In this document: positions 16 to 26,816 of the stretch, one piece after another | How the letters are laid out: the number at the start of each line of letters is the position of its first letter | How positions within the stretch are numbered: the first letter of the stretch is position 1 | Made by a program: the position numbers and the translations under genes | From: a virus | Lineage: Duplodnaviria; Caudoviricetes | Reading direction: 5' to 3' (one strand) | Length of the DNA stretch: 28,588 bases | Virus record (IMG/VR): IMGVR_UViG_3300025137_000195 | Coordinates: 1 to 28,588 of that record | Notes under the pieces: model-generated | Told to the model about the DNA's origin: nothing | The model's input: only the letters and a program-made list of their open reading frames with translations | Databases searched by the model: none

Positions 16-321
16 TTATTTCATTTCAGGGTGAAAAAGGAATTTTATTATCTTAGCATCTTTTGATACTTCTTTACCATCTATTTCTATACCTATAGGA
101 TAAGGTTTAGTTTTATCATCTGCCCAATATGCTACATCGTAACTTTTATCTTCATTGCTAGTTACTAATAGTCCTCTATTGTAGGTATCTTCTTCTGCTT
201 GTAGAACAACCATTTTACCGGTAGGAAGAATCATATCTCCCATTAGTTTAATATCTCCTTCGTTATAACCGTCATCGTTATATCTATTTTCCTCTTTAAG
301 AATAATATCACTTAATTTCAT
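16..321 (-). CDS. hypothetical phage protein, 101 aa, with N-terminal MKLSDIILKEE motif
   Basis: ORF track; ATGA overlap with the upstream gene. The N-terminus resembles that of the 150-aa ORF (MKLNQLRTVIREE). Confidence 0.75.
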   Translation of the reverse strand: MKLSDIILKEENRYNDDGYNEGDIKLMGDMILPTGKMVVLQAEEDTYNRGLLVTSNEDKSYDVAYWADDKTKPYPIGIEIDGKEVSKDAKIIKFLFHPEMK

Positions 322-797
322 ATATCAAAATCTTTTCTATAAAATTTACCAAGTACATTATCGTTTATATAATTACTACGAGTTTCTAGTACTTCATTTA
401 TAAATAGGTACTTACACTCATAATATGTAAGTAATTTTTTATTAGGTACATAACATAAAATAGTTCTTTCGAAATCTGTAGCTTTACTTTCTTTAACTAA
501 TTTTAGTATATCTTTATGAGACCCGTAATAAGTTTTCCAATCAGATTCAGTAATTATCTTTTGTTTAAGAGGAACTCTACCTCCTATGCCTTTTGATTTA
601 CGTTCTTCCCTAAGAGCTTCTAATGCTCTTTTTCCTAGTCTTTTATTACGTTCAAAATAAAGTACTTTTTTACCTAGGTACATTTTACCTGAAGGTTTAT
701 GAACTGTTTTGTATATAAAACCAAATGTACCTTTAGGCATATCTGAAATATTTCCAACTGGTTTGCTTTCATATATCCAATCTGGGATTGATATCAT
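318..797 (-). CDS. GIY-YIG family endonuclease (phage-type, T4 endonuclease II/Seg-like)
   Basis: GFIYK...KMYLGKK bipartite GIY-YIG motif, followed by ESDWKTYYGS, FERTIL, a candidate catalytic E in LTYYE, and YINDNV. Confidence 0.8.
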   Translation of the reverse strand: MISIPDWIYESKPVGNISDMPKGTFGFIYKTVHKPSGKMYLGKKVLYFERNKRLGKRALEALREERKSKGIGGRVPLKQKIITESDWKTYYGSHKDILKLVKESKATDFERTILCYVPNKKLLTYYECKYLFINEVLETRSNYINDNVLGKFYRKDFDI

Positions 798-2074: not shown

Positions 2075-3796
2075 TTAAAATAATGCGTTCCAAGTAGTCC
2101 CGTTATAGTAGTACAGTTTATTAGTAGTTGCAGATCCTGATGCGATGATCATTCCTCTTTGTGGTGTTGGTGCTGTTGTTCTGACAGCTAGTTTAAGTAT
2201 TGCATCTGCTGTTGCTGATCCGGTAACTATTAAATTCTGTACGTAAGTTGTAGAAGTACCTATTGATTGCCCAGTTCCAACATTTATTCCACTTCCTAAT
2301 ACTAAAGCTGTCGCAGCTCCTGCACATATTTTATTATTGATACCTGCTATAAAAGAATTTCCACTTCCTGATATAGTATTTGTATGTCCTCCAGCAATGG
2401 TACTAGAATCGTTAGGTCCGTAAATTTTATTATTATAACCTCCCCCTATCGCACTTAAGGTTTGAGAACTATCATTTTTGCATCCTCCGGCTATTACACT
2501 ATGTGCGCCAGAGCCTGTGTTAAACTGACCAGCTCCTATAAATATTGAATTTCCATTTAGTGTATTACTTGCTCCTCCTCCTAAGAAACTATGATCACCG
2601 CTAAGAGTATTCTTACATCCTCCAACGATAGCTGAGAAGTAATCATTTGCTCCAAAGGTAATATTATTAGATTCACCGCCTCCGATAAAACTATAATATT
2701 GACATGCATGATTTAAATTACCTCCAACAACAGTGGCATACACCTCCATTGCTTTGTTATTTCTACCTGCTCCTATAAATTGAAATCCACTATTAGCTGA
2801 TCCTGCTGAACCTGATACGCAGTTATTACATCCTGCAACGATTGCTGCAAAACAGTCAGTTCCTAACATAATATGGTTAGATTGTCCACCTCCTATAAAT
2901 GTATAAGGAGACTCTGTACAGTTTGCGTTACCGCCAACTATTGATGAGTAGCTCCCAGATATTTCATTTGCATCACCACCTACTATTGAGGATCTACAAA
3001 CTGTGGAAGATATATCATTTTTACATCCGCCAACTACTACCCCGTAACAGGCATTATTATTGTTACAAAATCCTCCACCTACAAAAGATAAACATCCGCA
3101 AGCATCGTTTTGTCCTCCACCTACTAGTACGGCACCACCGTGTCCGAGAGTGTTAAGTTGACCGCCTCCTATAAAGCCAAATCCAGCACCATTTGGTGAT
3201 ATGATTATTTCATTAGACTGGCCGCCAGCAATTACTCCTAATGTTTCTGAGATTTTATTGTTGCATCCTCCTCCGATAAATCCGCAATTTCCTGCGGTTG
3301 TACCTGTAATCGAGTTCTTATACCCTCCTACTATTGTTGAACATTGTGCTGAACTACTGTTAAATTTACCTCCTACTACTACAGATGCTGCTGCATAAGC
3401 TAAGTTAGAACAACCAGCGCCTATAAAAGCCCAATCGCCACTACTTGATACTATATTATTTTGTCCTGCTACAATGGTTGCAAAGCAAGCCCCAGACTTT
3501 ATAGTATTAGTTCGACCTGCACCAATAAAAGATTCAGCAGTTTCTATTGTATTAAAACTACCCCCAGCAATTGTACTACAATCGGAAACTGAACTAAATA
3601 TTGATTGACTTACTCCTCCAAGAATGCTGGAAAAATTTCCTACATTTCTAAAAGATCCTGTTACAGGGATTATATTATCTCCTGTTGATCCGCTGATATA
3701 TACTTGATGCTGTTCACCTAATGTTGAACCAGATATTATAAATGATCCGCTTACTATTAATGAGCCGCTTACTGATAAATTTCCTACTGTTGGCAT
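2075..3796 (-). CDS. tail fibre/adhesin with ~15-aa beta-roll repeats (xxIxGGxxN), Cys-rich, 573 aa
   Basis: More than 20 tandem repeats such as STIAGGSFN, SFIGAGRTN, GFIGGGCNN; C-terminal KLYYYNGTTW motif; located in the fibre cluster. Confidence 0.8.
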   Translation of the reverse strand: MPTVGNLSVSGSLIVSGSFIISGSTLGEQHQVYISGSTGDNIIPVTGSFRNVGNFSSILGGVSQSIFSSVSDCSTIAGGSFNTIETAESFIGAGRTNTIKSGACFATIVAGQNNIVSSSGDWAFIGAGCSNLAYAAASVVVGGKFNSSSAQCSTIVGGYKNSITGTTAGNCGFIGGGCNNKISETLGVIAGGQSNEIIISPNGAGFGFIGGGQLNTLGHGGAVLVGGGQNDACGCLSFVGGGFCNNNNACYGVVVGGCKNDISSTVCRSSIVGGDANEISGSYSSIVGGNANCTESPYTFIGGGQSNHIMLGTDCFAAIVAGCNNCVSGSAGSANSGFQFIGAGRNNKAMEVYATVVGGNLNHACQYYSFIGGGESNNITFGANDYFSAIVGGCKNTLSGDHSFLGGGASNTLNGNSIFIGAGQFNTGSGAHSVIAGGCKNDSSQTLSAIGGGYNNKIYGPNDSSTIAGGHTNTISGSGNSFIAGINNKICAGAATALVLGSGINVGTGQSIGTSTTYVQNLIVTGSATADAILKLAVRTTAPTPQRGMIIASGSATTNKLYYYNGTTWNALF

Positions 3797-3803
3797 ATTC
3801 TTA

Positions 3804-6017
3804 TTATGTTAGTCTTATTGCTATAAAGTTCCCACTTCTATATAACCCTCCTAGCGGTACTCCACCAGCTGCTGCTGCTGTATCGTCATTGAAATTTAAT
3901 GACTGTGATACTTGAGCTAATATGGTATGTCCGTTTTGAACTGTTACTGCTGTTCCTGTAGCTGCACTTTGTGATACTATTAATGAGCCTGATATTCTTG
4001 CAATACCTGCATATGGAAATCCTGCTCCCGATATTCCAGTTAATCCAGATCCATCACCAACAAAAGAACCACTAGCTTGGGCAACTTTTAAACAGCTATT
4101 AATAGTTACACAATTTTCACCGAAATCTCCTTTTATAAGGGGGACAGGTGAAGCTCCAATTCCTATATATAGTTGACAGGATTCTGTTGATGCAGCGCTA
4201 TTACCTGCTTGACAACCTATATAAATATTCTTTTTTGAATCACCTTCTGCATTATGACCAGCTTCGTACCCTAATGCTGTATTACCGTCCCCGGTTATTG
4301 ATGAGTTGAAACTAACACCCTGTAGGGCTGCCTGCCCTACAACTGTATTTTGCTTTCCTCCATTTCCGTATTGATAAGCTTGTGAACCTATAACTGTATT
4401 CTGTCTACCTGATTCTGTACAAAATCCTGCACGGTGCCCAATAAAAACACCATCATTATCAGAATACTTATAAGCTGCGTTATGTCCTAATACTGTATTT
4501 TGTGTTCCTGTGTTTAGCCTTAAAGTACCATGTCCTACTGTTACATTGTTAGCCCCTTGGATATTACATTTTAAGGTCTCATTTCCAATAGCTACATTAT
4601 CACTGTGGGTATAACTTTGACCGAATTCGAACCCTAAGTAGGAGCAAAGTGATTCTCTTCCTATTGCGATGTTGTTACGAGACTTGATACTTGAACGCAA
4701 TGCGCAAACTCCGATAGCTAAATTATAAGAACCAGAAGTTGCATTTTCTGCAGCTTGGTAACCTATCGCTATAGAACACCTAGTAGTACATGTACTGTTA
4801 GGAAGAGCATTATACCCTATACCTATATCTCTAATACCGTCTCTATTAGAAATTTTAATATTTTCATCTATTGTGGTATCTCCCTGTAGAAGGACTGTTG
4901 TATCAGAACCTGATACTATTAAGGAGCCTGTCACTCTTGCTATCCCTACGAAAGGAAATGCTGTTCCAGGTAAGTTAGTTAAATTAGATCCATCTCCTAC
5001 GTAAGAACCGCTAAATATAGATGCAGATACTATTGAATTGATAGTTAAATGACCAGTAGATAGATTACCTCTTAATAAAGGTGTTTCTCCTGATCCTGAT
5101 CCTATATAAAGTTGATGGGATTGTATTGTTTTAATTGAAGGTCCGACAGATGCTCCTACATATATGTTCCCAGTTGAGCTACCGCAAGTATTCATACCTG
5201 CATGATAACCTATACCCGTATTGGCATTTCCTTGATCTACTTCTCTCAAAACTTTAGAACCTACTGCAACTGAGAGAGACTGCCTACAGCACCCTGTGAC
5301 ATTCCCTACGAATACAGATTCTACTGCTGTTGAGTTACTCTTTGCCGATTGGTACCCTATAGCAACATTAAAATTACCTGTAGCTGCTTCTAATGCAGTA
5401 TGTCCTATAGCGACTGATCCTGTTGATAAAAGAGCATTTAAAGATGCGTTTTTACCTATACCTATATTATGAGTACCTAAAGTTAGTTTATTTAGTGAAC
5501 AAGTACCAATTGCAATGTTACTAGTATCGCAGTTATTTCCTGTTATAGGACCTGTATTATTTTTTAATGCATCTAAACCTATAGCTACATTATTCATAGT
5601 TTTCACACCTAATGTACCTGCTCTATACCCTATTAGGACGTTTGAAGAACCTGATACTTGAGATTTTCCTGATTCAAACCCTACTGCTATAGTTTGTCTA
5701 TCATATGTTTGAGTAGTTTCCGGCAATCCATCGTGTCCGATTGCTATATTCTTTAAATCTCCTCTATTTGATATAGCTATGTTTTGATCTATTACTACAT
5801 CACCGTTTAAATCAGATATTCCGTCAACTCTAAGAATTGCACTGGATCCAGATACTATTAACGATCCTGTTATTGATGCATCTCCATTTCTAGAACCATC
5901 CCATTCAGCTGCTGCTGTAATACCGGTTAAACCGGCACCACTACCGAAAAATCCTATAGAAGAAGATACACTCCCTGTTATTATAAGATTATTTTGAAAT
6001 ACATGTTCGTTAGCCAT
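3804..6017 (-). CDS. tail fibre with YadA-head-like (trimeric autotransporter) repeats, 737 aa
   Basis: Two blocks of ~14-aa N[IV]AIGxxAL repeats, each ending in LYIG...PL[LI][RK]G; GDGSxLTG linkers; C-terminal DDTAAAAGGVPLGGLYRSG motif. Confidence 0.8.
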   Translation of the reverse strand: MANEHVFQNNLIITGSVSSSIGFFGSGAGLTGITAAAEWDGSRNGDASITGSLIVSGSSAILRVDGISDLNGDVVIDQNIAISNRGDLKNIAIGHDGLPETTQTYDRQTIAVGFESGKSQVSGSSNVLIGYRAGTLGVKTMNNVAIGLDALKNNTGPITGNNCDTSNIAIGTCSLNKLTLGTHNIGIGKNASLNALLSTGSVAIGHTALEAATGNFNVAIGYQSAKSNSTAVESVFVGNVTGCCRQSLSVAVGSKVLREVDQGNANTGIGYHAGMNTCGSSTGNIYVGASVGPSIKTIQSHQLYIGSGSGETPLLRGNLSTGHLTINSIVSASIFSGSYVGDGSNLTNLPGTAFPFVGIARVTGSLIVSGSDTTVLLQGDTTIDENIKISNRDGIRDIGIGYNALPNSTCTTRCSIAIGYQAAENATSGSYNLAIGVCALRSSIKSRNNIAIGRESLCSYLGFEFGQSYTHSDNVAIGNETLKCNIQGANNVTVGHGTLRLNTGTQNTVLGHNAAYKYSDNDGVFIGHRAGFCTESGRQNTVIGSQAYQYGNGGKQNTVVGQAALQGVSFNSSITGDGNTALGYEAGHNAEGDSKKNIYIGCQAGNSAASTESCQLYIGIGASPVPLIKGDFGENCVTINSCLKVAQASGSFVGDGSGLTGISGAGFPYAGIARISGSLIVSQSAATGTAVTVQNGHTILAQVSQSLNFNDDTAAAAGGVPLGGLYRSGNFIAIRLT

Positions 6018-8503: not shown

Positions 8504-10162
8504 TTAAGGAGCTATTCCTACGTACATAATATAACATAATGCATAGTATGGAGGTAAGTTCTTATTTGTTCCAGATTCTCCACCTGTAGCTGATTGAATA
8601 GTAACAGATATTCCTGTTGTTGCTTTATCCGTCTGCGCCGCCTCGAAAGATGAAGTTCCATCTTTAGCTCCACTTGCACCTAATCCTCTTGTATTTTCTT
8701 GAGTAAAACCATGTTGGTGACCATCTCCTTCGATTACAGTCGCACTGTGGCCGTGTGCAACAATTACTGCATCTTTAGAACCACCTACAGTTCCTACTGC
8801 TGATCCGGATACAGTTGGTGAGGCTGCTCCCATAATAAATCTAGAAACTAAATTAGGAGTTACTTGACTATTAGAAGTAGTTCCATCACATATAGCCCAT
8901 CCTGTTGGTATTGCATTGGCTGCTCCTGACCATATTATTATTCCACCTAAAGGTGTTAAACCTCCAACGGTTGAAGTGTTTACAAAACGTCCATCTGATT
9001 TAACTCCTAAGGGCATAAAATCTTGATACGAAACTGTTATATCAGGGCCGGCTAATTGATCTATTTCAACGAATCCTGAACCTGATATATTACCGGCTAC
9101 TGTTAAACCGTTAGTTGCAGGGTAATTTGTATTTACTCCAGTCCTACCTGCTGCTGTTACTGTAAGAAGTGTGTCAGCTTTTGGGTTATCAAATTCATTT
9201 TCTGTTGTAGATATTACATTAAATCCTTCTTTTTGATTAGTATCAGTATTAATATTTACTACCACATTACCCCCGTCCGGACCAGCAGGAGAAGATATAA
9301 GTAAACCTGCAGTATTTGAATCGACAGGGATTAAAGTTCTTCTACCGTTTGAAGATGCGGTATTTATGCTAGAAGGAATAGGTTTTATAAAAGATTCTAC
9401 TGCTATTCCAGTTCCTATACCTACACCAATACCGTGTTCACCTGCTACATTTAAATTTTTAGTTGGCGAGGTGGTACCTATACCCAGGCTTTTAATATCA
9501 TTATCAAAACTAAAAGTACCTACAATAGAATCATCTCCTTCAACACCGCCGCTATTATTACCTACTATAGAATTATGTATTTTGCCGTATTCTTTTCTAC
9601 TTGCATCAATTACTTTATTTTGAGAGATATAAAAATGAGAATTAACTGATGATATCTTTCCTATAACTGAATTACTTGCTCCATCTGCACTATCTTCTTT
9701 AAATCTAATTAAAGCTTTAGAACCCTCGTTTGCAAATATAGGATTAGCAGTTAATGAAATTCCTGCTGCGTGACTATCAGATATCACACCTATACTTAAT
9801 CTCTCCTGAGAATTTGATGCTAAAGAAAGGAATTTTTTAGTATTATTCCATACAAAATTACTGTCTGCTTTAAAAATATCAACTCCATTTACCGGACCGC
9901 CGTTAAACTGTACTTCTGTTATATCGCCGGCTGCAGATGTTGTTGATTGTTGTGCAGCTTGTGCTGGGAAATTTATTTCTTCATACCTTTCTGGCCCATA
10001 ATCTACACCTGCAAGATCTAGAGCATTACTACCGGTATAGTGAAGTCTCATTGTTTGTCCACTATTTCGTAACGAACTAGAATAGAAAAACTGAGCTTGG
10101 TTTCTATCCATTTCATCGTAGGTTAAGGCAGAGCCTTTATTTACTCTAAGAATTATACTCAT
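8504..10162 (-). CDS. tail fibre with C-terminal tail-collar domain and HxH metal-binding tip (short-fibre/gp12-like), 552 aa
   Basis: N-terminal IILRVNKGSALTYDEMDRN anchor; collar motif PLGGIIIWSG..IPTGWAICDG...TPNLVSRFIMGA; HGH and HQH motifs; terminal NLPPYYALCYIM. Confidence 0.85.
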   Translation of the reverse strand: MSIILRVNKGSALTYDEMDRNQAQFFYSSSLRNSGQTMRLHYTGSNALDLAGVDYGPERYEEINFPAQAAQQSTTSAAGDITEVQFNGGPVNGVDIFKADSNFVWNNTKKFLSLASNSQERLSIGVISDSHAAGISLTANPIFANEGSKALIRFKEDSADGASNSVIGKISSVNSHFYISQNKVIDASRKEYGKIHNSIVGNNSGGVEGDDSIVGTFSFDNDIKSLGIGTTSPTKNLNVAGEHGIGVGIGTGIAVESFIKPIPSSINTASSNGRRTLIPVDSNTAGLLISSPAGPDGGNVVVNINTDTNQKEGFNVISTTENEFDNPKADTLLTVTAAGRTGVNTNYPATNGLTVAGNISGSGFVEIDQLAGPDITVSYQDFMPLGVKSDGRFVNTSTVGGLTPLGGIIIWSGAANAIPTGWAICDGTTSNSQVTPNLVSRFIMGAASPTVSGSAVGTVGGSKDAVIVAHGHSATVIEGDGHQHGFTQENTRGLGASGAKDGTSSFEAAQTDKATTGISVTIQSATGGESGTNKNLPPYYALCYIMYVGIAP

Positions 10163-10187
10163 TTTTTTACTTTTTAATTTAATGTTA

Positions 10188-10232
10188 ATCCAGTGCGACG
10201 CTGTTATGTACCCATGCGGGGACGGCCACTCA
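10188..10232 (-). ncRNA. predicted 45-nt exon/circular RNA product of the permuted ribozyme
   Basis: UGAGUGGCCGUCCCCGCAUGGGUACAUAACAGCGUCGCACUGGAU lies between the omega-G (10233) and the IGS-paired U (10188). It is 27/45 GC in an AT-rich genome. Its release as a circle is inference. Confidence 0.55.
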
Positions 10233-10465
10233 CATTATTGTTAGCTTTATGTCTCCATAAAGATCGGACTATATCATCAGATTGCTAGTCTGCTGGGCGC
10301 TAATTCTGGTTATTAAGGGAAACCATTTTCCCTCCAGTAGTCTCTGAACCTTCTATAAGATGGCTTATAGCTTGGCTGCTGATTGTCTAATCTCTAACAT
10401 TGTTACGCTTTGGTAGTTAGAGCTCTAAAGAGTTTCCAGCAATTCACCCAGTTTAAATTGGACTG
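10233..10465 (-). ncRNA. group I intron ribozyme core (subgroup IA-like), ORF-less, intergenic, apparently circularly permuted at L1
   Basis: Conserved elements on the minus strand: P AAUUGCUGGAAAC (10444-10432), Q AAUCAGCAGCC (10384-10374), R GGUUCAGAGACUA (10350-10338), S GAUAUAGUCC (10275-10266). Helices: P3 CUGGGUG (10451-10445)/CGCCCAG (10299-10293); P5 extension CUCUAAC/GUUAGAG; P6a CUAUAAG-CCAU-CUUAUAG; P7 GACUA/UAGUC; P7.1 CUGG-AGGGAAA-AUGG-UUUCCCU-UAAUAA-CCAG; P8 CAGA/UCUG; P9 CUUUAUG-GAGA-CAUAAAG with a GNRA loop; P9.0 AU/AU followed by omega-G at 10233. Confidence 0.93.
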
Positions 10466-10504: not shown

Positions 10505-10512
10505 TATAAATA
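10505..10512 (-). promoter_or_regulatory. putative late promoter TATTTATA driving the ribozyme/tail-fibre transcript
   Basis: GATATTTATATATAA lies about 40 nt upstream of the IGS and matches the motif at 8483, 13901 and 23698. Confidence 0.6.
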
Positions 10513-10541: not shown

Positions 10542-12182
10542 TTAAGCTTGCATTGGCGTATAAGTAGATTCAAATTCACAGGTCTGTTTATTCAACGCTA
10601 AATAGTTGTTTAATAAATTCCTATAGAACGATTCACTTCTTGAATTTTGATCGTTTGTATTATGTGTATTAAATGTATAATCGAATATTATTGCTCCGTC
10701 CTCGTTTTGGGATGTGACTACTGTTATATCTGTGTAGCATGGTGCTCTATTCCCATTATTTTGATTATCTACCAGTAGGTTGTAATTATTATAGGTATCT
10801 ATTCCTTTAATGATATTAGATGCAGCTGTATGATCTTTCTTTCTCCATAATTTGTATTCACCATTGTCACTAGTAATTCTTGTATCACCTCGGAGACCGT
10901 TGCGTTTTATACTTAACCCAGTTTCATAATACCAGTTTTGAATAGTAAAGTAGTAAGTACATGAAGTAAAATCTGGTGGAGTGTCTCCGCCTGGATCTGA
11001 AGGTTCAAATGAACCGCTTCTACCGCCTAATAGCCTATCTGAAGAGAAATTCATGTCAAGTTTAACTATTATAGACATATCAGTTTCTAAAGACTTGGGA
11101 GTTGGTCTTCCTAACTTACCTACTGCAATTAGTTGATTGCTGTCGTTATATAATCCGACAGTAGTGATATAAGGGTTATAATCTGACCCTGTAACAAATC
11201 CTTCAACTATACCGTTTTTATTAAAAGGAAAAAAAGCTGAGTTATTAATTTTCTGTAAGGTTGTTCTGTTTAGCGTATAGTTAAATTCGTTATTTTTTAA
11301 TTTACAGTGGTAGTTGTGAGTATATATAGGTAGGTTAGATTTCCATTTTAATACAGCATTGAAGTATGTGTTGTAGTATTGAGCTATTATACCATCTGTT
11401 ATAATTAACTGTCCGTGTGTATATATTGCATTTCCAACATAAACTCTAGGAGTAGAGTGTTTTAAAAATAATCTTCCTTCTCCATCATCTACTATTTCAT
11501 TACAGTTTCTTTCAGGAGTGGTTATTGAATTATCTATAAATTCTCCACCTCCTGATATAGTTTCATTAACATAGGTGCTTTCATTTTCTACGTAATCGGT
11601 ATTAGAAGGAGCACAGGTAGATTGAGTTTGACCAAATAGAAATTCTGTGTTTTCTATGTATAAATTATCTTCTGAGTTTATAGAATTTACTCCTAAGTCA
11701 GTGACGTAGTTGTTAGAAACATAGTTATCTAAACTACCGTTACTATCTGAGCCGTTAATATTATCTGGTGTGATAGATATGGATAGGGGTTCTATATGAG
11801 TCCCATACATTTCTTTAGGTAGAGAAAATATAGCTAGCCTATCGTTTATAATTCTTGAGCCACTAGCTTCAAAAGAAGATTGTAGATAATTATCATATGA
11901 ACTAGAAGTGGGGACTACTCCATCAACAAAATTAGAGTAGTAAAGGTGTTCTATACTTTCGTATATAAGCCTCCTATTGAAAACAGTACTTGAAGTAGTA
12001 ATTAAGTTTCCTGCAATAACATTTCCTGATGTAAGATCGTAAAAATTACCAGAACCGGATAATCCAACTATGTTGTTTATCCCTAGCTCCCTATATTGAC
12101 TTCCACTTGCTACCCATGATTTATGAGCTGTATAAGTCGATATATACGCATCCTGCTGATTGAATTTTTTGTAAGCAGTCAT
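10542..12182 (-). CDS. virion structural protein (baseplate/fibre-attachment), 546 aa
   Basis: PYITTVGLYNDSNQLIAVGKLGRPTPK...IIVKLD motif is paralogous to the C-terminus of the 342-aa neighbour; baseplate gene context. Confidence 0.65.
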   Translation of the reverse strand: MTAYKKFNQQDAYISTYTAHKSWVASGSQYRELGINNIVGLSGSGNFYDLTSGNVIAGNLITTSSTVFNRRLIYESIEHLYYSNFVDGVVPTSSSYDNYLQSSFEASGSRIINDRLAIFSLPKEMYGTHIEPLSISITPDNINGSDSNGSLDNYVSNNYVTDLGVNSINSEDNLYIENTEFLFGQTQSTCAPSNTDYVENESTYVNETISGGGEFIDNSITTPERNCNEIVDDGEGRLFLKHSTPRVYVGNAIYTHGQLIITDGIIAQYYNTYFNAVLKWKSNLPIYTHNYHCKLKNNEFNYTLNRTTLQKINNSAFFPFNKNGIVEGFVTGSDYNPYITTVGLYNDSNQLIAVGKLGRPTPKSLETDMSIIVKLDMNFSSDRLLGGRSGSFEPSDPGGDTPPDFTSCTYYFTIQNWYYETGLSIKRNGLRGDTRITSDNGEYKLWRKKDHTAASNIIKGIDTYNNYNLLVDNQNNGNRAPCYTDITVVTSQNEDGAIIFDYTFNTHNTNDQNSRSESFYRNLLNNYLALNKQTCEFESTYTPMQA

Positions 12183-26111: not shown

Positions 26112-26816
26112 TTATAGTTCTTTTATTACAATTTTTCCTTTTTCGTGATATCTATGGTATATTTCATAAAAATCATCTTTTAGTATAGAGATTACTTTTG
26201 TTAAGTGGGGAGTTTCACAATCAGTCATCTCCCTAATGTATATATAAAGAGCTTTTTTCTTAAAAATATCTAAATCATATCTAGTTTTAAAAATCGTTAA
26301 TACTGCATCTGCTATCCTCTTTTCACTATCTTTTGCAAATAAAGAGTCTAATTTATCGTAAGTTTTTTCAACCCACATGTCTAAGAACTGGCTTAAGGTA
26401 ATGCCGCCTGGGAGTTTTAAGTTTAGGCTTCCTTCGAAGGATTCTTCCATATCGTCGAATGAACCTATCTGTTTTAATTTTTTATAATTTTTATTATTAT
26501 AGTTTATTAACCACCTTTTTACAATAGTGCCAAAGTATGAATAAGCTTTGGCGCCATTAGTTGCATCAAATTTCATAATTTTTTCTTCTAGTAACATAGA
26601 GACTACTTCATGCTTTAAATCTTCTATACGCTCTACATCGGTATAGTAAAACTTAAAAGTGTGAATAATGTTTTCTGCTAACTTATAAAAAGGTATGTAG
26701 ATGTGATCTGTAAAAATCCGTGCTCTATAGTCTGTATCAATAGAGAGGTTGTATCTTACAATGTATTCTTCTGTTTCTGCTGTAAAGTAGTTTGCTTTAC
26801 TCTTCTTTCTTGCCAT
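26112..26816 (-). CDS. phage RNA polymerase sigma factor, T4 gp55-like (late transcription)
   Basis: N-terminal RKKSKANYF, KLAENI, EDLKHE, and KFDATNGAKAYSYFGTIVKR matching the sigma region 2 / gp55 FD.....AYFT.I pattern. Confidence 0.7.
   Translation of the reverse strand: MARKKSKANYFTAETEEYIVRYNLSIDTDYRARIFTDHIYIPFYKLAENIIHTFKFYYTDVERIEDLKHEVVSMLLEEKIMKFDATNGAKAYSYFGTIVKRWLINYNNKNYKKLKQIGSFDDMEESFEGSLNLKLPGGITLSQFLDMWVEKTYDKLDSLFAKDSEKRIADAVLTIFKTRYDLDIFKKKALYIYIREMTDCETPHLTKVISILKDDFYEIYHRYHEKGKIVIKEL

Follow-up and report, generated by a model that had tools for sequence, protein, structure and literature searches.

We identified, in a 28.6-kb phage contig, a group I ribozyme that appears to be opened in the loop of P1 and to back-splice the exon enclosed between its reversed splice sites as a small circle. 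The reading as a whole has in our estimate a probability of roughly 0.85. The element belongs to what is likely a natural family of circle-making permuted group I ribozymes, and one that is apparently undescribed. In RNA engineering, circular RNA is routinely made with permuted group I introns. The family reported here would be an evolved, compact one of at least 52 variants, with sequence evidence of reaction in natural samples and a cultured phage-host pair.

The element and its genomic context

The contig, referred to below as the window (the whole stretch of 28,588 nt that was analysed), has a CheckV completeness of 17% and carries baseplate and tail genes on its minus strand. An Rfam search of the window matched RF00028 at 10518-10245 (-) with 79.7 bits (cut-off 50, E 5.8e-19), the sole Rfam match at E<=1. 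The element is thus a group I core, and group II domain structure is absent; no P2 follows the guide, and no tRNA or tmRNA genes were found in the window. An earlier reading of the letters without database searches (the sequence-only reading) had placed a complete group I core between two intact genes, interrupting no ORF. This was borne out, as both flanking ORFs (Table 1) are whole and the same two genes are adjacent in five relatives that lack the element. Its coordinates were also all correct (CAGUCCA 10465-10459, G10463, omega-G 10233, exon 10232-10188 and UGGAUU 10192-10187). Its list of parts was right for the core and missed a conserved helix (Px) and a partner protein domain, both described below.

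Table 1. Features of the element and of its flanking genes, in window positions
Feature	Position	Strand	Remarks
Upstream gene, 546 aa, likely structural	10542..12182	-	N-terminal ~385 aa common to phages without the element
Partner domain (residues 407-534), C-terminal fusion to the upstream protein	10581..10964	-	Without known family
TATTTAT motif, likely phage late promoter	10506..10512	-	49 nt before guide G
Internal guide sequence (IGS), 5′ strand of P1	10458..10464	-	Wobble G is G10463
Group I core	10245..10451	-	Rfam match and alignment of 40 sequences
P3	10451-45/10299-93	-	
P4	10441-37/10381-77	-	
P7	10344-38/10271-66	-	
P9	10262-56/10251-45	-	GNRA loop
P5, P5a, P6, P6a, P7.1, P7.2, P8	within 10245..10451	-	
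P9.0 3′ strand (A10235, U10234) and omega-G 10233	10233..10235	-	Partners A10264, U10263; 3′ splice site
45-nt exon, predicted release as circle	10188..10232	-	Terminal stem; GGAU is the loop at the junction
P1 3′ strand	10187..10193	-	Predicted 5′ splice site between U10188 and U10187
Clamp helix Px, 3′ strand	10180..10185	-	Partner 10237-10232, across omega-G
Downstream tail collar/fibre gene	8504..10162	-	AUG 26 nt past predicted cut

A search with the upstream protein recovered 23 viral loci, several of them near-duplicates. The ribozyme is at the same place in 17, the two genes are adjacent without it in five, and one locus is cut off. Scans of viral and metagenome contigs with a core pattern gave at least 144 complete matches, which comprise 49 variants. 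Three later variants (L269 and L272 from protein searches and L279 from a cultured phage) raise the number to at least 52, and all three fit the layout. GTDB genomes yielded three core-pattern matches, all in a psbA-like coding context by eye and none permuted.

Based on neighbour genes shared with distant members of the family and on the habitats of the sequencing runs, the window phage is probably a marine Bacteroidota myovirus, broadly like immuto_2-6A (see below). Elsewhere in the window, 318-797 (-) encodes a free-standing SegE-type GIY-YIG domain protein (Pfam PF19835, E 6e-24).

A downstream P1 that covaries with the guide

In the sequence-only reading, P1 forms between AGUCCA and UGGAUU, the latter lying downstream of the omega-G. 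We found that this helix forms unprompted in the MFE fold of 10470-10160 (z -2.3). A 6-bp match is weak by itself, given that the same strand of the window has 12 copies of TGGATT; the downstream P1 is beyond chance because of covariation in the relatives. Each of the 49 variants has, at most 90 nt past the omega-G, a site that its own guide matches perfectly (the G-U plus four Watson-Crick pairs), compared with a mean of 17.1 and a maximum of 31 variants in 10,000 shuffles of the guides among variants, which are related and whose counts are therefore non-independent. The wobble at the cut is G-U in 48 of the 49 and A-U in L214.

The variable position of P1 was also examined without reference to the guide. 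Taking simply the first GGAU past the omega-G, with one manual exception (L166), this position is Watson-Crick in 45 of 49 variants, as A-U (16), U-A (16), G-C (12) or C-G (1); the four misses are variants whose first GGAU is inside the exon. In an alignment of 40 variants the pair holds in every one, again with four pair types, and the pairs flanking it also change on both sides. P1 scores 0.344 for covariation, where shuffling gives 0.085 and sliding no more than 0.054. The ends of this alignment follow our own choice of sites, a bias towards aligned GGAU columns, and nine of the 49 variants were left out (L034, L236, L228, L166, L094, L165, L180, L217 and L255). On a core-only tree, which is weakly resolved, the guide base changed about 16 times. 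The covariation between IGS and downstream site in homologs, which the sequence-only reading had put forward as a check, was thus recovered.

Upstream of the guide the picture differs. None of 47 variants has a perfect own-guide site within 90 nt upstream, and in the window the nearest upstream TGGAT on the same strand is at 12066, with no site within 1.6 kb, in agreement with the earlier claim that no 5′ exon there could form P1. Guide-matching sites occur in 5 of 47 variants within 130 nt upstream and in 14 of 33 within 600 nt, at scattered distances. The five matching sites found 105-111 nt upstream show no covariation with the guide across the family, and L012, L040 and L153 retain the upstream AGGAU despite a guide mismatch, so this site tracks codons rather than the guide. 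We consider it close to certain that the guide is at the 5′ end of the element and the 5′ splice site downstream of the 3′ splice site; in the window, comparative sequence evidence supports a cut after U10188 and an omega-G at 10233.

A conserved core and a proposed clamp across the omega-G

Among the 40 aligned sequences, 98.5% of core cells are paired and 25 pairs change on both sides. P4, P6 and P7 are invariant in all 40, including the P7 guanosine site (bulged A and G-C pair), and P8 is a short closed hairpin. The P9.0 pairs hold in 49 of 49 variants, with one position A-U throughout and the other U-A in 40, A-U in four, C-G in four and U-G in one. This covariation fixes the omega-G at 10233, as originally proposed, and the junctions found in RNA from relatives begin directly after this G. 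An omega-G at 10229, which would restore P10 in some relatives, was ruled out on both grounds. The 2-bp P10 of the sequence-only reading is present in the window, but we rejected it as a conserved element, as its two positions pair in just 21 and 25 of the 49 variants (seven sites were re-picked, and the count is independent of the pick).

A further helix, Px, joins the 3′ end of the intron, omega-G included, to a stretch a few bases past the cut, and in some variants it extends into the start of the exon. Of the 49 variants, 46 have a Px of 4-8 bp, and both of its strands vary (for example, UAAUG/CAUUA and AAGUG/CACUU). Px and the terminal stem of the exon together make a long hairpin with GGAU in its 3′ bulge. 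Ordinary introns use a P1 extension and a switch to P10 to keep the omega-G from the G-site before the first cut. Px may act as a clamp that bars the omega-G from the G-site until the cut by free guanosine has been made. Assigning the cut site by the longest Px helix was wrong in five variants, mostly placing it inside the next ORF, and a mean Px length of 6.2 bp versus 3.85 bp shuffled was discarded as inflated, because it was obtained from such picks. In L166 (1022-1339, -) part of the P9 region is repeated inside the exon, which also has two GGAU sites; a sequence that could serve as clamp partner lies after each of them.

Predicted products in natural RNA

Thirteen marine runs recorded as RNA contain part of the stretch, with shares of 0.20-0.36 and none with half or more of its words. 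Six of the 21 listed runs were examined, as contigs rather than reads, and compared with the window and with its relative L015. The exon of the window is outside these data (no run covered 10176-10217, and X1 yielded nothing), which say nothing on its absence.

In L015 the predicted omega-G is 4689 and the exon 4690-4766. A 107-nt contig from run X5 (record 12) consists of L015 4737-4766 followed by 4690-4766 (77+30 nt). Run X2, from a different study, includes a 109-nt contig (record 8) with a 79-nt exon and then 30 letters that match the start of the L012 exon without a difference. In both cases the contig is 30 letters longer than the exon, the length that a closed loop should have in a 31-mer graph, and both junctions are exactly at the predicted splice sites; the short side of 30 letters is one below the 31-letter bridging rule, as expected for a closed unitig. 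The exon junction occurred in two of the four runs compared with L015, and X8 and X10 had no exon circle. Unspliced pieces spanning both sites are also present in the RNA runs. No tandem exon junction was found in the 410 fetched DNA sequences. The junctions themselves come from metatranscriptome runs, where reverse-transcriptase switching may also give rise to such joins. The search of metatranscriptomes for junctions suggested by the sequence-only reading therefore succeeded for 77- and 79-nt circles of relatives, in two studies, in the form of contigs rather than reads. We regard back-splicing as a highly probable chemistry for these elements.

Two other closed contigs join the omega-G to sequence upstream of the guide. 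In X2 record 3 (341+30 nt) it is joined to the base after the upstream AGGAU, a site in the last codons of the upstream gene that had been predicted before X2 was compared with L015. In X10 record 1 (248+30 nt), which runs through letters matching the L006 leader, the junction is about 17 nt before the guide G. We read both as cyclisation of the released ribozyme at guide-matching upstream sites. The freed ribozyme thus appears to be reactive in cells, as judged from contigs that join it to such sites. No contig joining the upstream AGGAU to the exon start was seen, although contigs cannot prove absence.

A protein domain that accompanies the ribozyme

The upstream protein is approximately 160 aa longer than in relatives without the element. 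A domain of ~130 aa recurs directly upstream of the ribozyme, either behind at least five unrelated N-terminal proteins or as a free-standing gene. It is upstream in 34 of the 35 variants with enough flank, and absent from all five element-less relatives. The ribozyme lies within 260 nt of all 135 domain matches in the fetched loci, a redundant set that was mostly found through the RNA. Protein-led searches returned eight loci, all with a permuted ribozyme, of which four (two variants) were new. In a wider intron sample (121 loci; 74 matches without anchors were dropped and 41 unique ones scored), a downstream site with no upstream one was found in 14 of 14 introns with the domain, compared with 2 of 27 without it. 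On these associations in sequence, ribozyme and upstream domain travel as a two-part cassette.

The domain, represented by 56 cluster representatives, mostly ends at or near the C-terminus and has a mean column identity of 27%. Its predicted fold (pLDDT 85) is a beta-sheet of long strands with a C-terminal helix. There was no sequence match in Pfam, PHROGs or PDB sequences and no fold match in Foldseek PDB, BFVD, VIA-wide (best Z 4.7) or the ESM Atlas, and such absent matches show neither a new fold nor a function.

One contig holds two cassettes, ~3.5 kb apart, with different guides and exons (L098 and L099). In L214 (598-864) an A replaces the wobble G and the reading frame of the domain is broken. 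In L156 (665-977) the ribozyme is intact, and the domain is reduced to a tail remnant behind an unrelated repeat protein.

The element in a cultured phage and a likely late promoter

Flavobacterium phage vB_FspM_immuto_2-6A (MW353175.1), which infects Flavobacterium sp. LMO8, carries the element at about 145030-145300 of its record. Here the domain stands on its own as the gene immuto26A_225 (E 3.4e-5 in a profile match). This gene is followed by TATTTAT, the guide (3442 in L279), the core, the omega-G at 3644, an 18-nt exon, the matching site at 3662 and then Px. A terminator hairpin with a U-run occupies 3673-3696, 11 nt past the cut, and a new TATTTAT precedes the next gene, as is the case in L272. 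In the 160-kb genome the domain and the group I core were each matched once, next to one another. The element of this phage has the appearance of an RNA gene in its own right. Trimming of the next mRNA is thereby weakened as the reason for its existence, and 5′-end remodelling of that mRNA was demoted as a general purpose after the terminator was found. An annotated hypothetical protein of 44 codons (immuto26A_226, L279 3488-3622) lies over the ribozyme core and is probably not a gene.

The TATTTAT motif is likely a phage late promoter: five of its nine minus-strand copies in the window fall in the 2.6% of the sequence that is intergenic. In other variants it often overlaps Tyr-Leu codons of the partner domain. 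In L099, L184, L193, L230, L041 and L272 it starts 11 nt ahead of the guide G. The AUG at window 23694 has a TATTTAT at an equal distance, and transcripts of these six may start almost at the guide, without room for a 5′ exon. A candidate reader of the motif is a 234-aa ORF at window 26112-26816 (-), which has no Pfam or PHROG match and which we take, from a motif, to resemble phage late sigma factors.

Possible mechanism and purpose

In the mechanism that we propose, the precursor would fold with Px holding the omega-G and the G-site left free, and the guide would dock on the GGAU bulge. Free guanosine would then cut after U10188 and remain on the downstream RNA, the short Px helix would release, and the new 3′-OH would attack after G10233. 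The predicted products are a circle (45 nt from the window exon), a 3′ piece tagged with G, and a linear ribozyme with a free omega-G end. The junctions seen in RNA of relatives are consistent with a guanosine-dependent transesterification in two steps.

As to purpose, our preference, held tentatively and at well below even odds, is that the exon is a disposable leaving group and that back-splicing matures the ribozyme to its free-omega-G form. Putative maturation is favoured because the exon shrinks to a hairpin of 17-19 nt, the core is nearly fixed and the freed ribozyme appears to react again. The free-omega-G ribozyme and the partner domain would then constitute an RNA-cutting or RNA-joining particle late in infection. 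Against a single, long and fixed target outside the element speaks that guide positions 5-6 vary with its own exon.

The sequence-only reading instead took the ribozyme as dedicated to making the circle. As a working product, the circle would be a stable stem with a GGAU loop, to which the partner domain would bind. Circles can be picked up in metatranscriptomes of the ordinary kind. When 51 exons were folded as circles, the four GGAU bases were unpaired with a mean probability of 0.82-0.94, and many of these circles have a stem that closes directly at the junction. None of the aligned variants departs from GGAU. However, exons range from 17 to 80 nt without a shared interior, docking by the guide likewise requires an open GGAU and a closing stem, and G-C-rich P1 helices are similar in conventional relatives. 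The circle as the end in itself is a rather unlikely purpose, less so than any of those that follow. A translated circle was rejected: in the two frames inspected by eye the 45-nt circle has stops, within it or across the junction, and exon lengths are not restricted to multiples of three.

A more far-reaching version of the maturation reading is a new phage ribonucleoprotein system. In it, release of a minimal exon as a circle would arm the ribozyme, and the domain, which is often fused to virion proteins of the tail or baseplate, would bind either this ribozyme or the circle. We consider it unlikely as it stands. If true, the phage particle may carry the ribozyme or circle, which would cut or join RNAs with GGAU sites in the infected cell.

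The point of the reaction may conversely be the 3′ piece, whose guanosine-derived 5′ end and short, open, A-rich leader would serve as a switch for capping or timing. Of the 49 variants, 42 have an ORF that begins 22-36 nt past the cut, and Px pairs the first bases of the leader in the precursor. The terminator and new TATTTAT of immuto_2-6A and the new motif in L272 speak against such a switch, as do 3 of the 49 variants, in which the next 80 nt contain no ORF; we find it doubtful.

No more probable is a selfish mobile cassette, with the domain as an unrecognised mobility protein and a ribozyme that removes itself just to render the insertion harmless, in the style of collaborative homing or of IStrons (PMC4227781, in the accessible part of that source). 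Such a cassette would fit the variety of proteins in front of the domain, the two copies in one contig, the patchy presence among the 23 loci and the decay in L214 and L156. On the other hand, an intergenic insertion is harmless without splicing, and the core is far better conserved than the domain, which suggests selection on the RNA. By far the least probable is an ordinary group I intron with its true 5′ splice site upstream in the protein gene, a reading that could draw on the five variants with a perfect site 105-111 nt upstream, on the X2 junction there and on the long P1 loops of conventional relatives (L069, L070, L074 and L077), and that appears largely refuted by the covariation, by the absence of an upstream site in the window, by the upstream AGGAU that persists despite mismatched guides, by the lack of any ORF that continues past the omega-G and by the exon circles.

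Relation to known systems

Among conventional phage introns, the nearest by blastn is the psbA intron of cyanophage S-PM2 (77% over 124 nt). Conventional phage introns with P7.1/P7.2, which we take to be subgroup IA (cf. T4 td), share the core, G-site, P9.0 and 3′ end with the permuted elements. In the conventional relatives inspected, by contrast, the U-G site precedes the guide and the intron interrupts a gene or a tRNA. The c-di-GMP-II riboswitch-ribozyme of C. difficile reportedly undergoes an alternative GTP attack downstream. It likewise reshapes the 5′ end of the downstream mRNA, but keeps an upstream 5′ exon and a riboswitch. The lariat-capping ribozyme, also group I-derived, reshapes a downstream mRNA 5′ end by branching (PMC8637638, in the text available). 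In the sources consulted, formation of an exon circle is described for neither of these two.

Natural circularly permuted group II introns are, in the portion of the source available, stand-alone and ORF-sparing, associated with the protein AcpG and of unknown biological role (PMC8637638). The elements reported here resemble them functionally, without belonging to them, in having reversed splice sites less than 100 nt apart, a small and poorly conserved exon circle and an associated protein without known function. They differ in their group I chemistry, with guanosine attack expected and no branch, and in being phage-borne. The protein link is also tighter than in that account (PMC8637638), as the domain is on the same strand, directly upstream and often fused. 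Moreover, the contigs described above suggest reaction in cells, which the available text of that paper states was not shown.

The sequence-only reading knew of no natural phage equivalent among group I introns. We found no permuted group I intron of a phage or bacterium in the literature searched, mostly outside subscription papers, but there is a natural group I precedent in coral mitochondria. There, the gene-splitting ND5-717 intron holds most of the genome in P8, and back-splicing restores ND5 (PMC6545197, according to the accessible part). In comparison, the phage elements have a whole core with a short, closed P8, are opened in L1 and restore no gene.

Engineered self-targeting (STS) constructs have the same order of parts, namely guide, core, omega-G, cargo and target, and P1 alone can suffice in them (PMC11394858, in the sections available). 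Relative to STS and PIE designs as presented there, the phage elements are natural and compact (about 230 nt, no P2), have the Px clamp built in across the omega-G and have exons predicted to be as short as 17 nt. Both this helix and the minimal size of the exons may offer a template from nature for circularising RNA without scars. If the reading is right, both large classes of self-splicing introns have reached stand-alone back-splicing with a partner protein, and in the phage setting the timing of infection and a tightly linked protein would provide handles on the purpose of the ribozyme.

Phylogeny of the family and conventional relatives

On a tree of core sequences, 48 of the 49 permuted variants form one clade (SH-aLRT 98) beside conventional phage introns, and L041 is unresolved at the base. 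This is consistent with a single origin of the permuted family. The window core is 100% identical to that of L255 over 209 columns.

Several conventional group I introns were recovered along with the family. In L001 (1375-2595, -) and L080, four of them are arranged in tandem over ~1.2 kb with very short exons between, and one intron in these arrays forms P1 from GUGGAU and GUCCAC in the normal order. The permuted layout may have arisen by way of such arrays. L049, L061, L065, L085, L054, L066 and L072 are conventional introns in protein genes, without P2 and with a GGAU/GUCC P1 in normal order; their recovery reflects a search pattern that required GTCC. In L069, L070, L074 and L077, the long P1 loop ends in a Cys/His-rich frame that is HNH endonuclease-like by eye. 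Finally, the introns of L104, L119, L196, L211, L305, L333 and L395 are apparently located in the T-loop of tRNA- or tmRNA-like genes.
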